A stretch of 64,000 bases of DNA, taken from NCBI GenBank assembly GCA_964589975.1, contig CAZPVH010000004.1:10469-74468 (forward strand). The letters are read 5' to 3'. The position numbers and the translations under genes are program-made. This document shows, in pieces, positions 4,612-52,913 of the stretch. The notes beneath the pieces were generated by a model. The model saw only the letters and a list, made by a program, of their open reading frames with translations, did no database searches and was not told where the DNA came from. Each line of letters begins with the position of its first letter. Position 1 is the stretch's first letter. The DNA is from an uncultured Candidatus Saccharibacteria bacterium. GTDB taxonomy: Bacteria > Patescibacteriota > Minisyncoccia > Phycocordibacterales > CSBR16-119.

Positions 4612-7600
4612 ATGAATTTGGAATCTAGAAAAACCAAAGATTTGGGTGAGTTGGCCGATATTCTAAAAACGGCCGAAGCAGAGGATCGGCAGAAGGAGGG
4701 AGTAAGGGCGATGGAGGAGGTCCAAGCTCGGGCCAGAGAAGAAGCCGAAAAGGATAAAGCTGCAGAAAATGTACAGATCGATGTTTCAGGAGTTGAGCCG
4801 GAAGTTACCCAAGAATTCGAAAAGTCTCAAGAACAGCACGGAGGGTACAGATGGGAGAACGGTGACGGGAAGACTTTTCAGCCTCTTTTAAAACAAATAG
4901 ACCGTATCGCCTTGGAAGAACTCACTAAGGCCCAGATAAAGAAATATGCTGAAGAGATCGCCAAGGGGAATTATCCTTCTAAGGCAGGGTCCATAAAATT
5001 TTTTAATGAACACGAACAAGAGATAGACCGAGAGGTGCAGATCATAAAGGCAAAGGATAAGGAAGCAAATCTAAAGGAGACTATTTCAAATAATTTTCCA
5101 AATAGTGAGAAGCCTTCTGGGGCAACCGAGAAGAAGTCGAGTGGTGTTGGCCGCATGAGGTTCGACGGCACTGATCCTTATGGACTTCGGATAAATAAGC
5201 AGATCAGGTATTCCAAATCACCTGAAAATTCAGCCAAATCTGCAGAAACTACAGAATCAGCATTTGCAAGATGGGATGGGAAGCAAGAAAGGATTCATCT
5301 TGAGCCCGGTTCGCAAGTTCGGGCTGGTTCGATTGAGGCGGAGCGCGAACCTGTTGGCCGGCCGGAATCTTTTAAGTTGGACACAAAACCAGAAGGCCTA
5401 CCCAAAGAAGCTCCACGATTTGGAGAGGTGGAATCTCATGCCAGGGCTGGAGGAAAGACCATAATTAGTGAGAAAGCCCCTGCCGCGCCAACTGCTGCTC
5501 CGGAAAAGCCTAACGGGAAGGAACGAGTGGAGAAACCGGTTATTGAAAGGACAGAGGCACCTAAGCCTAATCCTGCGTCAGAAAGACTTCAAACGCCAGC
5601 TGCTGCATTTGAGGGGCGAACGGAAACGAAGTCTGAATCAAATAAGGAGCTTGACGGTCTTGTTCAATTCAATCTCGGAAAATTTGGCATTATTAACGGC
5701 AATGATACCGAAGAAGCTAAGGGCCTCAAGATGGCAGAACTTCGCCGTGAAATACCAGAGTTCTTTGCTCTCTCGTCAGCACAACAGCTCTATGCCCTTG
5801 AGAAGCTTAGTCAGAAAAAGTCACACAATCTAGATGTGGAGACCAAGCGAGCTATCAAAGACGCTGACGCCACTAATAAGAAGGGCGGAATATTCGGACG
5901 TATTGGACGAGGTCTCACCAGAACTGGACGCACTGCGACGCTTCGCAAAAAAACATTGGAAGAGATGAAAAAGGGCGGTCTTGCAAGCTATAAAGAAGAT
6001 CTTCAGGGAATTGCTGGATTCACGCTTGCTCGCGGCAAACAGATCGAGGTTGGAGAGAAGGGTATGGTTATAAAATTCGTTAATCGCGGTGAAGAGGTAG
6101 AAGGAAAGCATGGAAAAATCATAGACGCGTATAACCGCGCTGCCACAGCTTTGGCCGAAACGCCGTACGTTCACACAACAGGCGATCTTACGCCTCTTGA
6201 AATAGTGGCCAGAAATAAATTCAAAAAGGCGGAAAAGGCTTTTGAGGCGGCACGAGCAGAACTTATGGCGTTCGAAGGAAAGGGTCTTCCGCCAGAAGAG
6301 ATGAAAAAGAAAGTTCTTGAATTCTCAAACCTCGATGATGATATTCGTCTGAACCAGGCATACTCATATGATTCAAAAGATCTCTACGGCGATACAAGCA
6401 TTTGGAACAAGATGGGCCAGATCGCGAATGATTACAAGATAACCGAAAAGGGCGGTTACGCTCTATCCGGTTTCGCGGCACGAACAATGGGCAAATACGC
6501 TCTTGGACTCGGCGGCGGCGTAGTCGCGTCTTCATTTATGGGAGGACTCCGCGGCTGGATAAGCAAGCGTCAGGAATTCAAAGAACTTGCAGAGCGAAAA
6601 CGCTCGGGCGATGACGTTAAAGGCAAAGAAGCTGTCGGGGTTAAAGAGGTTATTGACGGCGCTAGCTATGCGGCAAAGATAGACAAGCTTATTGCCGAGA
6701 TAGAAAACGCAAAAAGTCCGAAGCGAGACGCGCTCATCCAGAGTTTGCAGAACCGAGTTATGATTGCGCGCGAGCGTGATGAAATGGGACTTGTAAACTT
6801 TGGCAAAGCTAACAAAGAATTGGCGGCGAAATATGACTTCTTCCGAGCGCTGAAGGCTGCCAATAGAATTCTTCTTGAAACTGATCCGGAGGTCATGAAG
6901 ACGGCTGATGCTGTGGCGGAAAGAATGCAGTCGCTCTATTTCAAAGATGAAATAAAAGATGTAGAAAAGAAAAAAGCGATCAAGGCATCAATCAAGCGTG
7001 GCGCTATAGCTGGGGCAGGATTCTTTGTCGGAGGCTTTATTGCAAACGACCTGGCTTTCCATAATGGCGAATGGACGAAAGGCGCTATCAAAGATGTATC
7101 TGACCTGAGCGAGAAGGCTCTTGGAGAGCTAAAAGAATTCGCCAAGGAAGCAAACGCAGCAGCGAATGTGCAGTTTGCGAAACTGGGAAGACTTGGCCTT
7201 GACGCTATAGACGGAAACAGCGCCATGAATCCTGAAGCTACAGGCATCAATAAGCCTAGTTTCCATAAAGTTGAAGTCATGCCGGAAATTCCACGGCTTG
7301 AGCAGACGTTTTCTATGGTGGGCGGACGAGGAGCGATTGGCGCTATCGATGAACTTCAGGAGAAACTTCTGGCTCGCTATGGCGAGAACATGCCGGAGAA
7401 TTTGAAAGCCTTTATGGCGGCCAAGCCGGAGAAGCTCGCGATTGATTGGGGCTTTTATCGCCCAGGCGAAGAGGCTGAGAGCGCCGCTGTTATGAAAGGC
7501 GCGAAGTTTGGTATTACAAACGAAGGCCAGATTACGTTTGAAGATCATGAGGGCAATGTTGTCAGACTTGGTGGCGGCGAGAAATTTGCCGGCCGAATGT

Positions 7601-8926: not shown

Positions 8927-10858
8927 TACCTCGAAGGCCTAAACGATCGGCAGAAAGAGGCCGTCCTTCATAAGGACGGCCCTTTGCTCATTGTCGCTGG
9001 CGCGGGCGCGGGGAAGACAAAGACTATCACACACAGGATTGCGTACCTCATCGAGCAAGGTGTGCCGGGAGAACAAATTCTTGCCGTAACCTTCACAAAC
9101 AAAGCCGCCAAAGAGATGAATGAGCGCGTGCAAAGCTTGGTAGCACTGCCGGATTTCGCCGGGAGACCGACTATTTGTACATTTCACTCGCTGGGTGTCA
9201 GGATCCTTAAAGAAAACGCTAGAGCACTCGGACTTTCGCGATTTTTCCCAATCATGGATGACGATGACAGTATGTCTCTCATTAAAGAATCCATGAAAGA
9301 GCTCGGCATTGATCCGAAGACTGTTTCGCCTCGTTCGGTTCGCTCATTCATCTCGCGCTCGAAGAATGATTTTTTATCGGAGCAGGATTTCTCCGATCAG
9401 AATGTGAAGTCGTATCAGCAAGCCATCAATCTTTCTGTTTGGAAAAAATATGAAGAGAAGAAAAAAGCCGCAGGAGGACTTGATTTTGACGACCTCTTGC
9501 TCGAGACAACAAAGCTTCTTCAGAAGAATCCAGAAATACTCGCGGTATATCATGCTCGCTGGAGATACATTCATGTGGATGAGTATCAAGACACGAATAA
9601 AGTGCAGTATGTGCTGACGCAGCTCCTTGCCAAGGCGAGCCGGAACATCTGTGTGGTTGGTGATGGTGACCAAAATATTTACAGTTGGCGTGGTGCCGAC
9701 ATTGTAAACATCTTGAACTTCGAGAAGGACTATCCCGACGCTAAAGTGGTACTACTCGAGGAGAATTATCGCTCGACGAAGACGATACTTCACGCGGCGA
9801 ACTCAGTTATAAAGAAGAATAAAGAACGAAAAGAAAAGAATTTATTTACATCAAACGATGATGGTGACATGGTCTCACTTTTTGAAGCCTATAACGATAG
9901 AATCGAAGCTGAATTTGTGGCCGAGAAATGCGTCGAGCTCATGGATAAAGGAATTAAGCCGGAAGACATTGCCGTTCTTTATCGCGCGAACTTCCAGTCG
10001 CGTCTTCTGGAAGAAAAGATGCTCACATATTCCGTGCCTTATCAGGTACTTGGGGTTAAATTCTTTGATCGAAGAGAGGTGAAAGATGTTTTGTCGTACC
10101 TGCGGCTCGCGTTTAATCCGAATTCCTCTGTCGATATCCGCCGGGCAATATCTTTCCCAAAGCGCGGGCTCGGGAAAGTCGCTGTCGAGAAAATCCTTGC
10201 AGGAGAAAAGGATAAATTACCGATGAAGACACTTATAAAAGTGAATCAGTTTTTTGAATCTATCGAAAAGATGCGCGAATATGCCGAATCGCATCTTCCA
10301 TCAGAGACGTTGAAGTATGTCATCAAAGCTTCCGGCATAGAAGCGGAACTAAAAGCCGGGAAGTCTGACGACGATATCGACCGGCTTGAAAATGTCATGG
10401 AAATGGTTTCGTTCGCAGCTAAATATGACAGTTTTCCACCGATCGAGGGTATTGAAAAACTTATCGAAGAAGCGAGTCTTGCATCTGATCAGGATTCGCT
10501 CTCGTCCGAAGGCGAGGCGAAGAAAGAAAAGAATAAGCGTGGTGTGAAGCTTATGACCGTGCATGCCTCAAAGGGGCTCGAGTTTAAATACGTGTTCATC
10601 GTCGGACTTGAAGGCGAGCTTTTTCCGCATGTCCGCGACGACATGTCGGATATCGAAGAAGAGCGCCGCTTGTTTTACGTTGCCATTACGCGCGCTCGCG
10701 AGAAACTGTTCCTGACTTACGCCACGCTTCGCCAGCTTTTTGGTGAGACCAAACTCCAAATGCCGTCGCAGTTCCTAAATGATGTCCCGCAGGAAATACT
10801 TTTCCGCGAGGAAAGGGAGTCGAGCGGGTTTGGGAATAATGTGATATATCTAGATTGA
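8921..10858 (+). CDS. uvrD: UvrD/PcrA-family ATP-dependent DNA helicase
   Basis: GAGAGKTKT Walker A; helicase motifs TFHSLG, VDEYQDTN, VGDGDQNIYSWRGA, YRS; C-terminal motif VHASKGLEF...LFYVAITRA. Confidence 0.85.
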   Translation: MNYLEGLNDRQKEAVLHKDGPLLIVAGAGAGKTKTITHRIAYLIEQGVPGEQILAVTFTNKAAKEMNERVQSLVALPDFAGRPTICTFHSLGVRILKENARALGLSRFFPIMDDDDSMSLIKESMKELGIDPKTVSPRSVRSFISRSKNDFLSEQDFSDQNVKSYQQAINLSVWKKYEEKKKAAGGLDFDDLLLETTKLLQKNPEILAVYHARWRYIHVDEYQDTNKVQYVLTQLLAKASRNICVVGDGDQNIYSWRGADIVNILNFEKDYPDAKVVLLEENYRSTKTILHAANSVIKKNKERKEKNLFTSNDDGDMVSLFEAYNDRIEAEFVAEKCVELMDKGIKPEDIAVLYRANFQSRLLEEKMLTYSVPYQVLGVKFFDRREVKDVLSYLRLAFNPNSSVDIRRAISFPKRGLGKVAVEKILAGEKDKLPMKTLIKVNQFFESIEKMREYAESHLPSETLKYVIKASGIEAELKAGKSDDDIDRLENVMEMVSFAAKYDSFPPIEGIEKLIEEASLASDQDSLSSEGEAKKEKNKRGVKLMTVHASKGLEFKYVFIVGLEGELFPHVRDDMSDIEEERRLFYVAITRAREKLFLTYATLRQLFGETKLQMPSQFLNDVPQEILFREERESSGFGNNVIYLD

Positions 10859-10954: not shown

Positions 10955-11773
10955 TTGATTAATAGAATGATTATGCGACCAAAGAAATCACTCGGGCAGA
11001 ATTTTTTGAAGAGCGGAAAAGCGCTCGGGGATATTGTTCGTGCGGGGGAGGTGAGTGCCGATGATGTGGTGCTAGAAATTGGTCCGGGGAAGGGAGCGCT
11101 GACGGAGAAACTCCTCGAAACCGGCGCGAAAGTTTTCGCCGTCGAAAAAGATCGTGATTTGATTCCACTTCTCACAGAAAAATTCGCTACATACATTGCT
11201 TCCGGAAAACTAACCCTCATCGAAGCCGACATCCTCGACTTCAATCCTTTAAGCTATAAGCTAAAAGCTAACAGCTATAAGCTCATGGGCAACATCCCGT
11301 ACTACATCACGGGCGCCATCATCCGAAAATTCTTGGAGTCCGATTATCAACCATCGCTTGCCGTTTTTCTAGTCCAAAAAGAAGTCACGGAGAGAATCGT
11401 CGCGCGTGATGGGAAGGAATCGATCTTGTCGCTCTCAGTCAAAGCTTACGGCGAGCCAAAACTCGTGGCCAAAGTCCCAAAAAGATACTTTACTCCGGAA
11501 CCGAAGGTCGATTCAGCCGTGCTTTTAATCGACAATATAAGTAAAAAGAATTTTCGAAATCTCAAGGAGGACGACTTTTTCTTCTTGGTTAAAGCAGCTT
11601 TCGGCCAAAAGAGGAAGACAATGCTAAAAAACCTTACCGGAGCCGGGATTTCCAGGGAAAATCTGGTATTTCAGGCCGAAAATATGGGGCTTGATCCGAA
11701 AATAAGGGCCGAAGACCTAACCATTCAGCAATTTCTGTCTTTAACGAAGGCTCTTTTCCCGAATAAACAGTAG
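10955..11773 (+). CDS. rsmA: 16S rRNA (adenine1518/1519-N6)-dimethyltransferase RsmA/KsgA
   Basis: LGQNFL motif, SAM-binding VLEIGPGKGALT, conserved KsgA C-terminal domain; TTG start. Confidence 0.85.
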   Translation: MINRMIMRPKKSLGQNFLKSGKALGDIVRAGEVSADDVVLEIGPGKGALTEKLLETGAKVFAVEKDRDLIPLLTEKFATYIASGKLTLIEADILDFNPLSYKLKANSYKLMGNIPYYITGAIIRKFLESDYQPSLAVFLVQKEVTERIVARDGKESILSLSVKAYGEPKLVAKVPKRYFTPEPKVDSAVLLIDNISKKNFRNLKEDDFFFLVKAAFGQKRKTMLKNLTGAGISRENLVFQAENMGLDPKIRAEDLTIQQFLSLTKALFPNKQ

Positions 11774-17797: not shown

Positions 17798-18466
17798 ATG
17801 ACGGTAACATCACCTGACAAGTTAATAGAAGAACATTTGGCATCCCTGCCTGAGCCTATTAAAAAGGCCATCGCTTCTTTCGACTGGGCGAGGGAGGTCT
17901 TCGATATTGGTCGAAAGCATAACATGCATATCGATCGCATTGGCGAGCTTCAAACTGAAGTCATGCTTGTCGTATTGGGACTCATTTCTCCTCGGGATTT
18001 CCAGACTGAACTAATGGAGCGAATCGAGCCTAATCACGATATTGCTATAGAAGTTTCTGACGAGGTGAATAAACGCGTCTTTATCCGGATCCGGGAATTC
18101 ATGAAAAAGTATTATGAGGACGACGGCACGCCAAAAGCTGTGGCGGAACCACCCGACGCCATAAAATCCGCCGAGAAAAAGGTGCTTAATGGCGCGGGAA
18201 TTCGGCTTGAGGGCGACCCTGAGCCTGAACCAGCGAAAATCACCATGGGTCCCGCGTCCATTTCGTCCGAAGAAGATGGAATCATCTCGCTTGGATCGTA
18301 TGATGACTCTGATTCGGCAGCGCCAACTCCGAAAATAGATCCGATCGTGCAGAAAGTCGCGCAGACGATGGAGAAACAGGAAGTCAGACCGTCGCCAATC
18401 ACTGTCATCAAGGCCGAGAATGCGCCAAAAGGTTTTTTGGATCCGTATAGAGAAGTTGTTGAGTAA
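17798..18466 (+). CDS. hypothetical cytoplasmic protein
   Basis: 222 aa, acidic, no recognisable motifs. Confidence 0.5.
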   Translation: MTVTSPDKLIEEHLASLPEPIKKAIASFDWAREVFDIGRKHNMHIDRIGELQTEVMLVVLGLISPRDFQTELMERIEPNHDIAIEVSDEVNKRVFIRIREFMKKYYEDDGTPKAVAEPPDAIKSAEKKVLNGAGIRLEGDPEPEPAKITMGPASISSEEDGIISLGSYDDSDSAAPTPKIDPIVQKVAQTMEKQEVRPSPITVIKAENAPKGFLDPYREVVE

Positions 18467-18916
18467 GTAGAAAGTAGTAAGTCGTAAGTCGCACGAACGA
18501 TGAACGAGCAAATAAAAAGAGGGCACAAGGATCTTGTAGTATGGCAAAAGGCCATGGACTTGGTCGAGGAAATTTATAAGTTGATTAAAGAGCTTCCAAA
18601 GGATGAGAAGTTTAATCTGGTTTCACAGATAAGCAGATCAGCTGTATCTATACCCTCAAATATTGCCGAAGGGTATAGAAGGGGGTCTGATAAATCATTC
18701 AAACAATTTTTATTAATTGCCTTCGGTTCAAGCGCCGAACTTGAAACTCAAATTGAGCTGGTCAAGAGACTGGTTTTAGCCCCCAATTTTGATTTTAAAG
18801 CAGTTGATAATCTCTTGTCTGACACCATGAGATTACTGAACGCTTTCATAAAGAAACTAGGTTGATCAAAGAGTTATCCGTGCTACTTACGACTTCCGAC
18901 TTCCAACTTACTGCGT
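18461..18916. repeat. IVS-like hairpin element: heptamer-repeat inverted repeats enclosing the four-helix-bundle gene
   Basis: Left arm GTAAGTAG-AAAGTAG-TAAGTCG-TAAGTCG-CACG (18461–18499). Right arm CGTGCTACTTACGACTTCCGACTTCCAACTTAC (18879–18916). The proximal stem pairs about 17 of 20 nt. Confidence 0.5.
18500..18865 (+). CDS. four-helix-bundle protein (23S rRNA intervening-sequence protein family)
   Basis: 121 aa; WQKAMDL...ELPKDEKFNLVSQISRSAVSIPSNIAEGYRRGS...ELETQIELVKRL matches the TIGR02436-type family. Confidence 0.8.
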   Translation: MNEQIKRGHKDLVVWQKAMDLVEEIYKLIKELPKDEKFNLVSQISRSAVSIPSNIAEGYRRGSDKSFKQFLLIAFGSSAELETQIELVKRLVLAPNFDFKAVDNLLSDTMRLLNAFIKKLG

Positions 18917-18928
18917 TATAATTAACTC

Positions 18929-19345
18929 ATGCGTTTCCAGGTTCCCCAATTCATCGACATCGAAGACAAGATCTTCGGACCGTTCACGTTCAAGCAGTTC
19001 GTCTATTTGGCGGGCGGCGCCGGCGCGTCTTACGCCATTTTCAAGCTTTTGCCTATCTACATCTCCGTTTTGCTTATCTTGCCGATCCTTGGAGTCGCCA
19101 TGGCACTTACTTTTTACAAAGTGAACGGCAAGCCGTTCATTGATATCCTCCAAGCCTGGTTCATATACACCTTCAAATCGAAGCTTTTCATCTGGAAGCA
19201 GCGCAAGGTCGAGAAAAAGAAAGAAGTTGTAGAAAAGAAGCCAGAAGCTCATCCAATGTCGAACATTCCAAAGCTTACGGAGTCGCGTCTCTCAGATATT
19301 TCTTGGAGCCTAGATGTCCTAGACATGCAGCAGAAGGATAAATAA
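18929..19345 (+). CDS. PrgI/VirB3-like small membrane protein of Gram-positive-type T4SS
   Basis: 138 aa; FQVPQFIDIEDKIFGPFTFKQFVYLAGGAG plus two TM helices, typical of the PrgI family; TATAAT-N6-ATG promoter. Confidence 0.6.
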   Translation: MRFQVPQFIDIEDKIFGPFTFKQFVYLAGGAGASYAIFKLLPIYISVLLILPILGVAMALTFYKVNGKPFIDILQAWFIYTFKSKLFIWKQRKVEKKKEVVEKKPEAHPMSNIPKLTESRLSDISWSLDVLDMQQKDK

Positions 19346-19351
19346 TTTTTT

Positions 19352-19996
19352 ATGGCACTTAATGCAAGAGCATCACAGCAGTTCGTTCCGATAAAAGAGA
19401 TCCAAGATGGGATCGTCGTTTTGAAAGACGGCGGTCTTCGGGCAATTCTCATGGCTTCTTCCATTAACCTTTCTCTAAAATCGGAGGATGAGCAAACTGC
19501 GACGATCATGCAGTTCCAAAATTTCTTGAATACGCTCGATTTTTCCATACAGATCTCGGTGCAGTCGAGGAAATTCAATATCACAAACTATGTAGCCCTG
19601 CTTGAGGGTCGGGTTAGGGAGCAGACCGAGCCGCTTCTAAAGATTCAAACTGAAGAATATATTAAATTCATTAAGGATTTTACCGAAACGACCAACATTA
19701 TGACCAAGCACTTTTTCTTGGTCATACCCCTAATGCCACTCAAAGGTGCTGACGGTGGTCTAATGGACAAAGTGCTGCCGGCGAATAAAACAATGACGCG
19801 CGCAGAGAAGGAAGAGGCTTTTAGCGAGGAGCGCTCACAACTTGAACAGCGTATTGCCGTTGTTGAACAGGGACTTTCTCGCATTGGCGTCCGAACTCTT
19901 CAGCTCAAAACGGAGGATGAGGTCGAATTGTTTTATCGCGTCTTCAATCCGGGCGACGCCGAAAGTCCGATTGATATAACTAATCAAGACAAATAA
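19352..19996 (+). CDS. VirB4/TrbE-family conjugal-transfer ATPase, N-terminal domain fragment
   Basis: IPIKEIQDGIVVLKDGGLRAILMASSINLSLKSEDEQ is the typical N-terminus of Gram-positive VirB4 (PrgJ/TcpF/Orf16-like). It ends at a TAA in frame with the next ORF. Confidence 0.6.
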   Translation: MALNARASQQFVPIKEIQDGIVVLKDGGLRAILMASSINLSLKSEDEQTATIMQFQNFLNTLDFSIQISVQSRKFNITNYVALLEGRVREQTEPLLKIQTEEYIKFIKDFTETTNIMTKHFFLVIPLMPLKGADGGLMDKVLPANKTMTRAEKEEAFSEERSQLEQRIAVVEQGLSRIGVRTLQLKTEDEVELFYRVFNPGDAESPIDITNQDK

Positions 19997-19999
19997 TTT

Positions 20000-22072
20000 A
20001 TGGGACTTCTAGATCTCCTCTCGGGGAAAAAACCAAAGAATCCGAAGAAAGAAATCCTGCCGGTATTGCCGGAAGAGATTTATCAGGCTGCGACTTTGGA
20101 GCTTCAGGATATTTTGGCGCCGTCGGCTCTTAAAATATCGCCGAAGGCCCTGAATCTCGGCGACAAAATCGCCCGAACGTATTTCGTCATTTCATACCCA
20201 AGGTTCCTATCAGACAATTGGTTCACTCCAATCATAAACCTCGACAAGATCTTCGATATTGCGATCCACATCCATCCCTTGGATACGAACACCATTCTCC
20301 GAAAATTTCAAAAGAAAGTGGCTGAGGTTCAGAGTCAGGTTAATGTTAGAGAATCAAAAGGCCTTGTGCGTGATCCGGTTCTCGATACGGCGTATCAGGA
20401 TCTTGAAGCTCTTCGTGACTCTTTGCAACAGGCTCAAGACAAGATGTTCGACGTTGGACTCTACATCACCATTTACGCGGATTCCATGCCGGAGCTTTCG
20501 AAGATTGAGAATGAAATCAAGTCGATCCTGGAAGCCAAGCTTGTCTATATCAAGCCAGCGCTATTTCAGCAGGATGTTGGTTTCAATAGCGTGGCGCCGC
20601 TTGCGACAGACTTCTTGGCTGTTCATCAGAAGATGAATACCGAGCCTCTTTCATCCATCTTTCCATTCGTCTCTTTCGATCTTTCGTCCGACAAGGGAAT
20701 TCTTTACGGCATAAATCGTCACAACTCTTCTCTGGTTATTTTCGACCGCTTTTCGCTCGAAAACTATAACTCGGTCACGTTTGCCAAGTCCGGTTCGGGT
20801 AAATCATATTCAACCAAACTAGAGATTCTCCGAACGCTCATGTTCGACGCGGAAGTCATCGTGATCGACCCCGAGAGGGAATACGAATATCTCTCTGAGG
20901 CCATTGGTGGCCGGTATTTCAATATTTCGCTCTCGTCCGAACACCACATCAACCCTTTTGATTTGCCTATTCCGACCGCCGATGAGACGCCGGAAGACGT
21001 TCTTCGCGCCAACACTATCCAGCTGGTTGGAATGTTTCGTATCATGCTCGGGGGCCTCACTCCGGAGGAAGACGCGATTATCGACAAGGCTGTGACAGAG
21101 ACCTACGCTCTAAAAGACATCACGTCAGATTCGGATTTTGCAAACATAGAGCCGCCTCTCCTTTCTGATTTCGAAATGGTTCTCGGTGGAATTGAAGGCT
21201 CAGACTCAATCATGACTCGGCTAGCCAAATACACGAAGGGTTCCTGGAAAAATTTCATTAACCAGCCGACAAACGTTGATATTAACAAGCGTTTTATCGT
21301 TTTCTCTGTTCGCGACATGGAAGACGATTTGAAGCCGGTTGCGATGTATATCGTCACGCACTTTATCTGGAACGCCGTCAGGAAGAATCTCAAAAAGCGC
21401 CTGCTTATCGTTGATGAGGCCTGGTGGATGATGAAGAGCGAAGATACTGCTTCCTTCCTTTACAGTATCGCCAAGCGAGGACGAAAATACTTCCTCGGCC
21501 TCTCAACCATCACTCAGGACGTGAATGACTTCGTGGAGAGCCAGTACGGCATGGCTATTGTCACGAACTCTTCGATGCAGCTACTCCTCAAGCAGTCCAC
21601 GAGCTCGGCCGACGCTCTCCAAAAAGTCTTTAACCTGACGGACGAGGAAAAATATCTCCTGCTCGAATCGGAAGTCGGCGAGGGCATCTTCTTTGCGGGC
21701 TTGAAGCATGTTGCCATAAAGGTCATTGCCTCATACACCGAAGATCAGATCATTACTTCGGACCCATCCCAGGTTTTGGCGATCAAGAAGGCTAAAGAGC
21801 AATTCCGAGAAGACGAAAAGGAGTTCGTGCGTACGGAAGGCGAACGTTTGGCAGGGGCCATGAATATTGAAGAAAGGCCAGAACCGACGTCATCTCCGGT
21901 CGAAGAATCGCCGACTAGACCCGCACAAGTTGTGGCTGAGCCAGAAAATCCAATTCCTCCCGCAAAGTCTACGGGGCCGAGGCCTCAGACAGAAACAGAG
22001 AATCTGGCCGAAGAGAGCGAGGGGCTGTCTGACGAGATTGATGATTTGGAGAAGATGTTTAAAGAATATTAG
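20000..22072 (+). CDS. virB4: VirB4/TrbE-family type IV secretion ATPase (ATPase domain)
   Basis: Walker A FAKSGSGKS, Walker B LLIVDEAWWMM, conserved VirB4 C-terminal motifs; acidic C-terminal tail. Confidence 0.85.
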   Translation: MGLLDLLSGKKPKNPKKEILPVLPEEIYQAATLELQDILAPSALKISPKALNLGDKIARTYFVISYPRFLSDNWFTPIINLDKIFDIAIHIHPLDTNTILRKFQKKVAEVQSQVNVRESKGLVRDPVLDTAYQDLEALRDSLQQAQDKMFDVGLYITIYADSMPELSKIENEIKSILEAKLVYIKPALFQQDVGFNSVAPLATDFLAVHQKMNTEPLSSIFPFVSFDLSSDKGILYGINRHNSSLVIFDRFSLENYNSVTFAKSGSGKSYSTKLEILRTLMFDAEVIVIDPEREYEYLSEAIGGRYFNISLSSEHHINPFDLPIPTADETPEDVLRANTIQLVGMFRIMLGGLTPEEDAIIDKAVTETYALKDITSDSDFANIEPPLLSDFEMVLGGIEGSDSIMTRLAKYTKGSWKNFINQPTNVDINKRFIVFSVRDMEDDLKPVAMYIVTHFIWNAVRKNLKKRLLIVDEAWWMMKSEDTASFLYSIAKRGRKYFLGLSTITQDVNDFVESQYGMAIVTNSSMQLLLKQSTSSADALQKVFNLTDEEKYLLLESEVGEGIFFAGLKHVAIKVIASYTEDQIITSDPSQVLAIKKAKEQFREDEKEFVRTEGERLAGAMNIEERPEPTSSPVEESPTRPAQVVAEPENPIPPAKSTGPRPQTETENLAEESEGLSDEIDDLEKMFKEY

Positions 22073-22075
22073 GAA

Positions 22076-22245
22076 GCTCCGCAGAATGCTTATTTAGGAA
22101 TCCTCCGAGATGCGCGCCCTCCATCCCTCGTAGCCCTCGGAATGGAGAAAACTGGCGCGCCCCCTCACGAAAAAGCTCCTAAAAGGGAGCTTTTTCTGCG
22201 GGTTCGTTCTCGGATTCCTAAATAAGCACTCTGCTCCGCGGAGAG
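22076..22245. repeat. MITE-like palindromic intergenic element (family 1, long copy)
   Basis: 21-bp TIR AGAATGCTTATTTAGGAATCC / GGATTCCTAAATAAGCACTCT with nested GC-rich hairpins. Internal CTGCGGGTTCGTTCTCGGATTCC is conserved with the copy at about 43.8 kb. Flanked by direct GCTCCGC on both sides. Confidence 0.5.
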
Positions 22246-43769: not shown

Positions 43770-43930
43770 CCCCAGAATGTGTTATTTGGGATTCTGCGAG
43801 ACGCCCGCCAGCCTTCCTCCGAGCACTCGGAAGGCTCATGAAGCACTAGTAGGCGGGCGCCCTCACGGCCTGTGCGCAGGCCTGCGGGTTCGTTCTCGAA
43901 TCCCAAAAAACACATTCTGCTTCGCTGGAA
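43770..43930. repeat. MITE-like palindromic intergenic element (family 1, long copy)
   Basis: 20-bp TIR GAATGTGTTATTTGGGATTC / GAATCCCAAAAAACACATTC; internal CTGCGGGTTCGTTCTCGAATCCC; about 80% identity over both ends to the copy at about 22.1 kb. Confidence 0.5.
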
Positions 43931-52022: not shown

Positions 52023-52877
52023 ATGAAGAAATATAAACCAACATCAGCAGGAAGGCGCGGCATGACGGTAGTAACCTACCGCGGCGTCCTTTCTAAATCA
52101 AAGCGCCATAAGCGCTTGTCAGTCGGCAAGAAGGGCCAGGGTGGCCGAAACAATCAGGGCCGCATCACCGTTCCTCACCAGGGCGGCGGCCACAAGCAGG
52201 CCTACCGACAGGTAGACTTCCTCTACAACAAGCAGGATATCCCGGCGAAATTCACGACGGTGGAATACGATCCGAATCGAAACGCTTTCATCTCACTCGC
52301 GGTTTACGCGGATGGAGAAAAGCGCTATGTCGTCTTCCCGAAAGGCGCAAAAATCGGTGACAAATTTATCGTCGGCAAGAACGTAGATGTGAAGACCGGA
52401 AATCGTCTGCCGCTCGTTGCGATTCCAGTCGGTACTTTTGTCTACAACGTTGAGATCAAAACGAACGGTGGCGCCAAGCTTGCTCGTTCTGCCGGATCAT
52501 TCCTCCAGGTCGTCGCTCACGACGAAGGCAAGACGTTCCTCAAGATGCCATCGACCGAAGTCCGCAAGGTTCCTTCAACTGCATGGGCATGCGTCGGCGA
52601 AGTTTCAAACTCTGAGTGGAAGCTTACAAACTTCGGTAAGGCTGGACGGTCTCGCTGGAAGGGCATTCGTCCGACTGTTCGCGGTTCTGCCATGAGCCCA
52701 GTCGATCACCCACACGGAGGAGGCGAGGGCCGACAGGGAATCGGTCTACGCCGAGGACCAAAGACTCGTCACGGAAAGCTTGCGTATGGCGTCAAAACCC
52801 GAAAGTCAAAGAAATACTCAAACAACCAGATCGTTACTCGCCGAAAGACGAAGCGAAATCAGCAGACGGTTGTCTAA
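52023..52877 (+). CDS. rplB: 50S ribosomal protein L2
   Basis: GRNNQGRITV...HQGGGHKQ..., SPVDHPHGGGEG. Confidence 0.96.
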   Translation: MKKYKPTSAGRRGMTVVTYRGVLSKSKRHKRLSVGKKGQGGRNNQGRITVPHQGGGHKQAYRQVDFLYNKQDIPAKFTTVEYDPNRNAFISLAVYADGEKRYVVFPKGAKIGDKFIVGKNVDVKTGNRLPLVAIPVGTFVYNVEIKTNGGAKLARSAGSFLQVVAHDEGKTFLKMPSTEVRKVPSTAWACVGEVSNSEWKLTNFGKAGRSRWKGIRPTVRGSAMSPVDHPHGGGEGRQGIGLRRGPKTRHGKLAYGVKTRKSKKYSNNQIVTRRKTKRNQQTVV

Positions 52878-52913
52878 TAGGTAACAGGAAACAGGTTACA
52901 GGTTACAGAAAAG

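Follow-up and report, generated by a model that had tools for sequence, protein, structure and literature searches.

A four-helix-bundle protein gene bounded by an inverted heptamer-repeat hairpin in a type IV secretion-like gene cluster of a Candidatus Saccharibacteria bacterium

The closest described counterparts of the element reported here, a gene for a four-helix-bundle protein enclosed by inverted arrays of 7-nt repeats, are the intervening sequences (IVSs) of bacterial rRNA genes. The element lies in a 64,000-nt stretch of DNA from an uncultured Candidatus Saccharibacteria bacterium (the window: positions 10,469 to 74,468, forward strand, of contig CAZPVH010000004.1, GenBank assembly GCA_964589975.1). 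In Coxiella burnetii, the 23S rRNA IVS is 428-444 nt long, with a 28-bp terminal stem and a homologous open reading frame (ORF), S23p, in the loop; 3-4 tandem heptamers (GACAGAT) stand just before the S23p start codon, in copy numbers that differ among strains; RNase III cleaves the stem near its middle in vitro, as mapped by rapid amplification of cDNA ends (RACE); and the excised RNA is unstable, with an ORF that is decaying and a protein that is probably not made (PMC4990558). ORFs for such intervening sequence proteins (IVPs) are also found in 16S and 23S insertions of the candidate phyla radiation (CPR) (PMC11270868), and one IVP gene is wedged between cmr3 and cmr2 of a cas operon in Pleurocapsa (PMC3936711, Zhang & Ye 2013). 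Tandem heptamers have also been described separately: intergenic arrays near start codons occur in Beggiatoaceae, cyanobacteria (short tandemly repeated repetitive sequences, STRR), and Bacteroidetes (TAACTGA) (PMC4679880). A post-transcriptional role, with a binding protein of unknown identity, has been proposed for them (PMC4679880; 10.1101/2022.06.06.494920), and those of Nostoc affect gene expression, with recF and recO reporters that depend on heptamers, through a partner not identified (10.1101/2022.06.06.494920). Nothing was found in the literature that ties heptamer repeats generally to this protein family; the Coxiella paper notes the heptamers in its own IVS.

The gene at the center of the element (18500-18865, + strand) encodes 121 amino acids, with matches to PF05635 (23S_rRNA_IVP, "23S rRNA intervening sequence protein"; E 6.7e-37, 126.4 bits against a cutoff of 33.8) and TIGR02436 ("four helix bundle protein"; 123.8 bits, cutoff 24). 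Its left (5') arm, at 18462-18495 on the + strand, reads AGTAAGT, AGAAAGT, AGTAAGT, CGTAAGT, and then CGCACG; the right (3') arm, at 18879-18912 on the same strand, reads CGTGCT and then ACTTACG, ACTTCCG, ACTTCCA, and ACTTACT, which is the left-arm family of units in reverse complement. Each arm measures 34 nt and holds about four tandem heptamers; the two are 85% complementary and 383 nt apart, and together they are the longest inverted repeat of the whole window. Tandem Repeats Finder (TRF) reports both as period-7 arrays, at 18462-18489 (4.0 copies, AGTAAGT) and 18885-18909 (3.6 copies). A bracketing of the four-helix-bundle gene by inverted heptamer arms was the core of the original prediction, and it is borne out. 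The unit had been given as the 8-letter GTAAGTNG, which is incorrect: it is 7 nt long, [A/C]G[T/A]AAGT, with the pattern N-G-N-A-A-G-T. In the window, the string AAGT-N3-AAGT-N3-AAGT is confined to the two arms, with 4 matches against 0.37 expected, a number reached by 0 of 100 shuffles.

The arms had been expected to pair over about 20 bp; they do pair, but the length was underestimated, being about 29 bp. Folding, which had been suggested as a check, gave a minimum free energy (MFE) structure for 18455-18925 (471 nt) in which the arms close (z = -4.95). The arm duplex has a predicted energy of -36.9 kcal/mol, vs. -10.7 +/- 3.3 for shuffled right arms, and the 29 long-range arm pairs have a mean pair probability of 0.95 and are kept when 300 nt of context are added on either side. 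The element therefore shares traits with two described classes: terminal inverted repeats enclosing it in a stem longer than the minimum of ~20 bp expected of IVSs, and, by TRF, the head-to-tail 7-nt units (three or more, non-coding, beside gene ends) of STRR or long simple sequence repeat (LSSR) arrays. It is the only one of its kind in the window, where no further copies of the IVP gene or the arms were found; homologous genes with similar flanks form a wide family considered below. A search of the whole window against Rfam at gathering thresholds, with tRNA and tmRNA scans, gave nothing relevant, and Rfam at E<=1 over 18380-19000 gave a chance hit only.

This feature is real and far beyond chance, and it is an ancient, selected resident of its gene cluster. 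On balance, if with some reserve, we read it as a hairpin-bounded IVS-type gene cassette that lives in mRNA, its stem probably processed by RNase III and its units perhaps read in addition by a protein. Its place, on this reading, is the 3' end of the transcription unit preceding the PrgI, TraC, and VirB4 genes of a type IV secretion (T4SS)-like cluster.

In the encoded protein, the R-x3-S-x3-N-x2-E core (SIPSNIAEG), already noted for TIGR02436 in PMC3936711, and the ELETQ motif are both present, and R46, S50, N54, E57, and E80-Q84 are invariant in an alignment of 33 homologues. In the PDB it matches the pentameric four-helix-bundle protein XCC0516 (2gsc; E 1.3e-21), with 2rld also similar. 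Both entries hold five chains, and 2gsc is a homopentamer (PMC4990558); similarity to these two structures is what suggests that the window protein, too, is a homopentamer of four-helix bundles. The IVP is under strong purifying selection: between orthologues, nonsynonymous divergence (dN) is 0.09-0.33 and synonymous divergence (dS) is saturated. Saturation makes a dN/dS ratio impossible to compute, and the identity of the arms was compared with that of third codon positions instead.

Loci for comparison came first from a sample of 80 regions around VirB4 homologues, one genome per species and 1.07 Mb in total; the related loci (L numbers) derive from metagenome-assembled genomes (MAGs) of Paceibacteria, Nomurabacteria, and Kaiserbacteria, and the closest homologues carry a Patescibacteria (CPR, Paceibacteria-like) annotation, the group to which the window is assigned on that ground. 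Orthologous cassettes occupy the same slot in L002, L004, L005, L007, and L188-L193, with IVP identity from 85% down to 61%, and every close IVP homologue that could be located lies between an upstream gene of 200-225 amino acids and PrgI. The arms of all these are built from one unit family, AAGT[C/A]G[N]. They are 80-94% identical between the window and L002, L004, and L193, where identity at third positions of conserved four-fold codons is no more than 25-43%; judged by this comparison, the arms are functional, not neutral, their conservation being far past neutral expectation.

Nine orthologous "mini-hairpins" (left arm, linker, and right arm) were aligned as a covariation test. The consensus helix has 25 pairs, with 91% of cells paired; seven of the 25 show double-sided changes, mostly A-U to C-G or the reverse at the variable unit position, and the covariation score is reached by 0 of 500 column shuffles. 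Sliding one partner by 1-3 columns lowers pairing to 28-54%. L011 and L012, which have no IVP gene, nest inside the IVP-positive clade when VirB4-like ATPases are placed in a neighbor-joining tree, and so have lost the cassette. L012 keeps a single unit-like heptamer (GAAGATG), while L011 has in the same slot a gene-less hairpin of another heptamer, TTAGCTG. Comparison of the window with L012, whose site is empty, reveals no target-site duplication. Because slot and arm type are kept down to 61% IVP identity, with two nested losses, the cassette is, by all these signs, old and vertically inherited in this lineage and not a recent insertion.

Beyond its orthologues the cassette has a consistent build: an arm of some 4-5 tandem 7-nt units, a TIGR02436 gene, and the reverse-complement arm, recurring across phyla in ordinary operons. 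IVP genes are sporadic among the 80 VirB4 loci. Many are in the PrgI-proximal slot and others in the PrgI/TraC or TraC/VirB4 gap, with two per operon in L068 and L076, and all are co-oriented with the operon. They are flanked by inverted short-unit arrays whose complementarity is kept despite lineage-specific units (GTAAGTC, CTAGGCA, TAGCTNN, GAATATA, AATTACG, TTGAAGC, and others). In the 1.07 Mb there are 43 period-7 arrays, against one in shuffles and no more than nine for any of periods 5, 6, and 8-10, and about half of the 43 adjoin IVP genes. Another 80 metagenomic IVP loci, sampled independently, agree with this: for 56% of 73 IVP genes, the inverted repeats on either side score beyond the 99th percentile of mismatched-flank controls. 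An upstream gene in the same direction is present in 67 of the 73 cases, its stop codon usually only a few nucleotides from the start of the arm, and the neighbors are ordinary operon genes: sdhA/sdhB, ATP synthase beta/epsilon, ABC transporter, RuvB, KsgA, and PrgI.

Pooling gave 77 cassettes with a median arm of 30 nt. Of 75 arms, 50 fit a period of 7 best and 10 a period of 8, and about three quarters of arms have 4-5 units. AG is conserved in phase in 43 of 56 arms, compared with 8 for GA, a dinucleotide of equal base composition, and TAG in 23 of 56, so that the generic left arm would typically be written as (N)AG-N4 repeated. Left arms are poor in C (10%) and right arms in G, and 44% of left arms have stop codons in all three frames, compared with 12% after composition-matched shuffling. 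Cassettes of this build were found at 9 of 14 loci from a viral collection. A tblastn search of plasmids gave 24 matches, mostly from Nostoc, Calothrix, and Anabaena, and four of six inspected records contain cassettes: Nostoc sp. C052 (CAGGGAA), Calothrix brevissima (TAGGGTG), Geminocystis (AAGGGAA), and Riemerella (GGTTTAA). The Nostoc cassette (plasmid pC052_D, L195) lies between a gene with a TraM-recognition domain (coupling protein-like) and the next gene, and that of Geminocystis (plasmid pGM3709_03, L199) is wedged between a parA-like AAA ATPase gene and parB. Bracketing of this kind is thus usual for homologous genes on contigs from CPR, cyanobacteria, Bacteroidota, and viruses; related cassettes number about 110, and at least four phyla show the architecture.

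The IVPs of the T4SS slot are polyphyletic, interleaving by similarity with those of unrelated contexts, and unit type follows IVP clade even where genomic contexts differ; gene and arms therefore move and persist together. Derivation of the units as copies of the local stop-codon context was considered and rejected, since unit type follows the clade across unrelated contexts. One locus has cassettes within a coding sequence: in L130 (contig Ga0210058_1001494, 1-3498), the ORF of a BREX PglX/BrxX methyltransferase is interrupted by two IVP cassettes of unit TGGGAAG, with IVP proteins 92% identical. In the frame-1 translation, residues 121-810 and 958-1156 align to PDB 8c45; across the second insert, of 147 codons, the host frame is open and the third frame is full of stops. 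In L163 (1098-3433), a 1176-nt segment with an IVP cassette (unit AGGGGCC) and part of a neighboring gene is tandemly duplicated at 99.7% identity, and may be either a real duplication or an assembly artefact.

In the window, the gene before the cassette (17798-18466, + strand, from the ORF list) encodes 222 amino acids with no Pfam or NCBIfam match. It has syntenic homologues in L002-L090, and relatives keep its C-terminus, DPYRExxE*. Its stop codon, TAA at 18464-18466, lies inside the first heptamer of the left arm, where the original prediction had placed it. After the cassette come a PrgI-family (VirB3-like) membrane protein gene (18929-19345; PF12666, E 5.1e-11), a TraC-like/VirB4 N-terminal-like gene (19352-19996), and a VirB4/TraG-type P-loop ATPase gene (20000-22072), all on the + strand, the last two giving the context of a type IV secretion-like cluster. 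As also predicted, the right arm runs up to a -10-like box, TATAAT at 18917-18922 (+ strand), read from the sequence 4 nt beyond the arm and 6 nt before the PrgI-like ATG. Of 74 orthologous loci, 26 have a -10-like box ending exactly 6 nt before the PrgI ATG, and in 14 of these 26 the box has a TGn extension; PrgI-like genes with a box so positioned (often TGnTAtAAT) have no Shine-Dalgarno sequence (L011-L090 and the window). This spacing predicts a leaderless PrgI mRNA, the box itself being backed by its conserved position alone, and suggests that leaderless mRNAs for the PrgI-like gene are widespread in Paceibacteria. No -35 element matches the TATAAT at 18917-18922, and a two-hexamer sigma-70 scan finds no promoter at the cassette; an intrinsic terminator scan found none there, nor any between the upstream gene and the cassette. 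The cassette, itself promoterless, runs in the direction of the upstream gene. It had been placed within a single operon; this part of the prediction has to be given up, because a -10 box for a leaderless PrgI mRNA follows it, giving the two operon halves what would be separate transcription starts.

If the cassette is of the IVS type, its expression could proceed as follows. It would be transcribed by read-through from the upstream genes, and its arms would pair in the RNA to form a stem of ~29 bp enclosing the ORF. RNase III would cut this stem as it does in rRNA IVSs, freeing a small IVP message and severing read-through transcripts from the PrgI message, which would begin at its own leaderless promoter. 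For the window stem, such processing is probable by analogy. The IVP start codon is 4 nt past the inner end of the left arm, with no Shine-Dalgarno sequence visible before it. Because the upstream stop codon is in the first unit and the ATG 4 nt inside the stem, a ribosome that terminates at that codon should unwind the stem's outer half and so permit IVP translation, coupling it to that of the upstream gene. A sequence-specific reader, plausibly the pentameric IVP itself, may also bind the units (AAGT/ACTT here; (N)AG-N4 family-wide). This is suggested by the maintenance of the units in sequence and not merely in complementarity, by the (N)AG-N4 periodicity, by the match of 4-5 units to a pentameric homologue, and by the greater density of solo arrays near IVP genes (below). 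Given such conservation, a stem for RNase III is not sufficient as an explanation of the arms.

Several observations weigh against this account of the cassette. Ten of the 25 stem pairs, the AAGT/ACTT core, are invariant in the nine orthologues although synonymous sites are saturated, which points to sequence recognition rather than pairing alone. Arm mismatches in the 77 cassettes show no excess of G.U on the sense strand (65 sense vs. 85 antisense), and so no RNA-specific signature. Variant units do not come in mirrored order in the two arms (median p 0.25 by permutation), implying little selection for exact in-register pairing. The open pglX frame in L130 would be incompatible with obligatory cleavage there, although the arms of those cassettes pair poorly. 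No rnc gene was found by tblastn in the window or the related loci (with an approximate E. coli RNase III query), which says little, as these are small parts of genomes. Finally, since the Coxiella IVS RNA is unstable and its protein probably not made, that precedent is silent on whether cleavage serves expression of the ORF.

Heptamer arrays are also found alone, and in hairpins without a gene. In the window, an array at 52875-52910 (+ strand; TAATAGG, TAACAGG, AAACAGG, TTACAGG, TTACAGA) starts on the stop codon of rplB (ORF 52023-52877, ribosomal protein L2), and no partner arm for it was found in the window. It is followed by a GC-rich, terminator-like hairpin (GCGCCCCGCAAGGGGCG and a T run), beyond which is an unrelated gene of 207 amino acids with TATAAT 7 nt before its ATG. 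A five-unit array at 11244-11283 (+ strand; AAGCTAT, AAGCTAA, AAGCTAA, CAGCTAT, AAGCT) is inside the gene for the 16S rRNA dimethyltransferase KsgA/RsmA (10955-11773; PF00398, E 2.7e-55), where it encodes LSYKLKANSYKL in a variable linker ahead of the GNIPYY motif; KsgA is a neighbor of IVP cassettes in two metagenomic loci. Another solo array is at L002 5533-5577, and L130 has solo TGGGAAG arrays within coding sequence at 2282-2311 and 5229-5264. Solo arrays are about six times denser in IVP-bearing loci (Fisher p 0.008). Gene-less heptamer-arm hairpins with loops of 6-31 nt (L005 5470-5600, L011 4740-4815, L063 5850-5930, L043 4698-4799, L070 810-860) fill slots of the T4SS-like cluster that hold IVP cassettes in other genomes; the strongest, in L005 (31 bp, -40 kcal/mol), is right before the VirB4-like ATG. 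In L043 there are at least six AATTACG/CGTAATT arrays, in both orientations, within 13 kb (3367, 3728, 4698, 4767, 7356, 11322), which indicates a genome-wide repeat family sharing its unit with the local IVP cassette. A different repeat of the window is an element of ~150 nt in two copies with alignable interiors, at 22081-22234, directly after the VirB4-like gene, and at 43773-43919. It has terminal inverted repeats of 22-23 nt, 95-96% complementary (GCAGAATG..TTATTT.GGAATCC), and no Rfam match, and may be a structured RNA or a repeat resembling miniature inverted-repeat transposable elements (MITEs).

It is possible, if not the outcome we expect, that the main function of the heptamer arrays is to be bound by an oligomeric protein, for which the encoded pentameric IVP is the most plausible candidate. 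HutP binds RNA at three UAG-N4 units and TRAP at (G/U)AG repeats, and both are ring-shaped regulators; in the same way, each IVP subunit might, tentatively, recognize a single (N)AG-N4 unit of an RNA or DNA single strand. Binding could then conceivably compete with the hairpin and regulate the cassette, its processing, or the adjacent promoter, an arrangement compatible with the RNase III model. The phase conservation of AG and TAG would be accounted for, as would the agreement of 4-5 units in most arms with the 2gsc homopentamer and the tracking of IVP clade by unit type across contexts. So would the retention of arm sequence where synonymous sites are saturated, the unmirrored unit order and absence of G.U bias, and the existence of arrays without a partner (those at window 52875-52910 and 11244-11283 and in L002) in excess where an IVP gene is near. 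Against all this, no TIGR02436 protein is known to bind nucleic acids sequence-specifically, and Avd proteins, which are related, reportedly bind them irrespective of sequence. The N4 portion varies widely among fairly close IVPs, and different unit types can occur in one genome, the window itself having AAGT, AAGCT, and ACAGG arrays. A correlation of clade with unit would also arise from co-inheritance of gene and arms alone.

Mobility at the DNA level as the explanation of the arms seems rather doubtful. In that case the arms would be the terminal inverted repeats of a transposon- or MITE-like mobile element and the hairpin a by-product; the stop-rich, purine-rich outer ends would, somewhat improbably, serve to let it land at or inside genes with little damage. 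The element has terminal inverted repeats, its presence is patchy, and different slots of one operon are filled in different genomes, by IVP genes that are polyphyletic within a slot. It has been lost in the nested L011 and L012, with GAAGATG as a footprint in the latter; L130 has two 92%-identical copies in one pglX gene, with solo arrays of the same unit; the L043 arrays are dispersed over at least six places; and stops in three frames are in excess in left arms. Similar ideas have been voiced for rRNA IVSs (PMC4990558). However, no transposase or recombinase is encoded, a helical bundle of 121 amino acids being an unlikely catalyst; there is no target-site duplication relative to the L012 empty site and only a single copy in 64 kb; and the cassette has been held in one slot through saturating divergence, unlike an active transposon. 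The mobility allowed for in the original prediction is thus upheld for the family, which is patchy, polyphyletic, and found in several slots and twice in one pglX gene, and is not supported as a recent insertion at this locus.

That the repeats are functionless products of replication slippage and quasipalindrome correction beside a small gene is very improbable. Heptanucleotides are reported to be the commonest class of long simple repeats in prokaryotes and are ascribed to polymerase slippage (Mrazek et al. 2007, as represented in PMC4679880), and unit copy number differs among Coxiella strains (PMC4990558). Neutral slippage is unlikely in view of arm conservation, which contradicts it: arms keep 80-94% identity between genomes with randomised synonymous sites, and the AAGT/ACTT core is invariant in nine orthologues. 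Furthermore, period-7 arrays far outnumber those in shuffles or of other periods and are concentrated at IVP genes, and the architecture recurs in at least four phyla. The identification of the gene as the Avd accessory protein of a diversity-generating retroelement, hardly credible at all, was dropped, as its weak matches to bAvd PF22296 (25.2 bits, cutoff 40) and the NCBIfam Avd equivalog NF033474 (25.4 bits, cutoff 80) are below threshold, no reverse transcriptase domain is encoded by neighboring genes in the window or the relatives' loci, and PADLOC gives no match.

The hairpin-bounded, RNase III-processed cassette thus remains the reading we prefer, and it appears to be an ORF-carrying IVS-type element outside rRNA, with an association between TIGR02436 and inverted heptamer arrays that apparently has not been described before; the rRNA IVS would appear to be just one habitat of the cassette. 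The TIGR02436 four-helix-bundle proteins have been orphans since 1993. Two puzzles more than 30 years old, the role of the conserved ORF of 23S IVSs and that of heptamer arrays beside gene ends, are physically linked across phyla by the window element and its relatives, and the link opens both to experiment. A more speculative proposal, which we think improbable as it stands though worth stating, is that TIGR02436 proteins are the readers of bacterial tandem heptamers, a pentamer sitting on 4-5 (N)AG-N4 units, and that gene and arrays form a horizontally spreading "IVS cassette." Were this so, the cassette could colonize any well-transcribed spacer, whether rRNA helices, operon junctions, or even ORFs; the solo arrays beside starts and stops of genes in CPR, cyanobacteria (STRR), Beggiatoaceae, and Bacteroidota would be remnants of it or sites that it targets in trans; and there would be a previously unrecognised post-transcriptional network. 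For annotation, it is relevant that a cassette divides operons that otherwise look continuous (T4SS-like, sdh, atp, cas, BREX) and can pass for a functional partner of its neighbors.

Known systems resemble the cassette to different degrees. Rickettsia palindromic elements are in-frame selfish insertions in ORFs, and the L130 cassettes are likewise inside an ORF (pglX) whose frame stays open; those elements carry no gene, however, whereas the cassettes do, and the window cassette is intergenic. The sites of HutP and TRAP offer an analogy only, in having NAG at a fixed short period and a number of units close to the number of subunits in the oligomer; IVPs have no homology to either protein, and their binding to the repeats is hypothetical. 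With the TIGR02436 genes of cas operons (PMC3936711), the window shares a small IVP gene between co-directional genes of an unrelated operon, but the authors infer a functional linkage to Cas nucleases, and flanking repeat hairpins are not reported there. STRR-type arrays are similar in having 2-6 units of 7 nt, a few nucleotides from start or stop codons and often containing stop triplets, and their host taxa overlap with IVP-rich taxa (the plasmid matches being mostly from Nostoc, Calothrix, and Anabaena); they differ in being direct repeats with no partner arm or link to a four-helix bundle, where the arrays described here are inverted pairs around a gene.

The rRNA IVSs are the nearest match, and the IVS-like architecture proposed at the outset, transferred to an mRNA region, agrees with what was found. 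Unlike the Coxiella IVS, the window element lies between protein-coding genes, with no rRNA gene or Rfam match in the window, and its ORF is under strong purifying selection where that of Coxiella is decaying. In other respects the two are alike: as in IVSs of the Coxiella/Leptospira type, a PF05635 ORF occupies the loop of a terminal-repeat stem of ~28-34 bp; tandem heptamers stand directly 5' of its start codon, the Coxiella unit GACAGAT itself fitting (N)AG-N4; and both elements rely on transcription of the host sequence.

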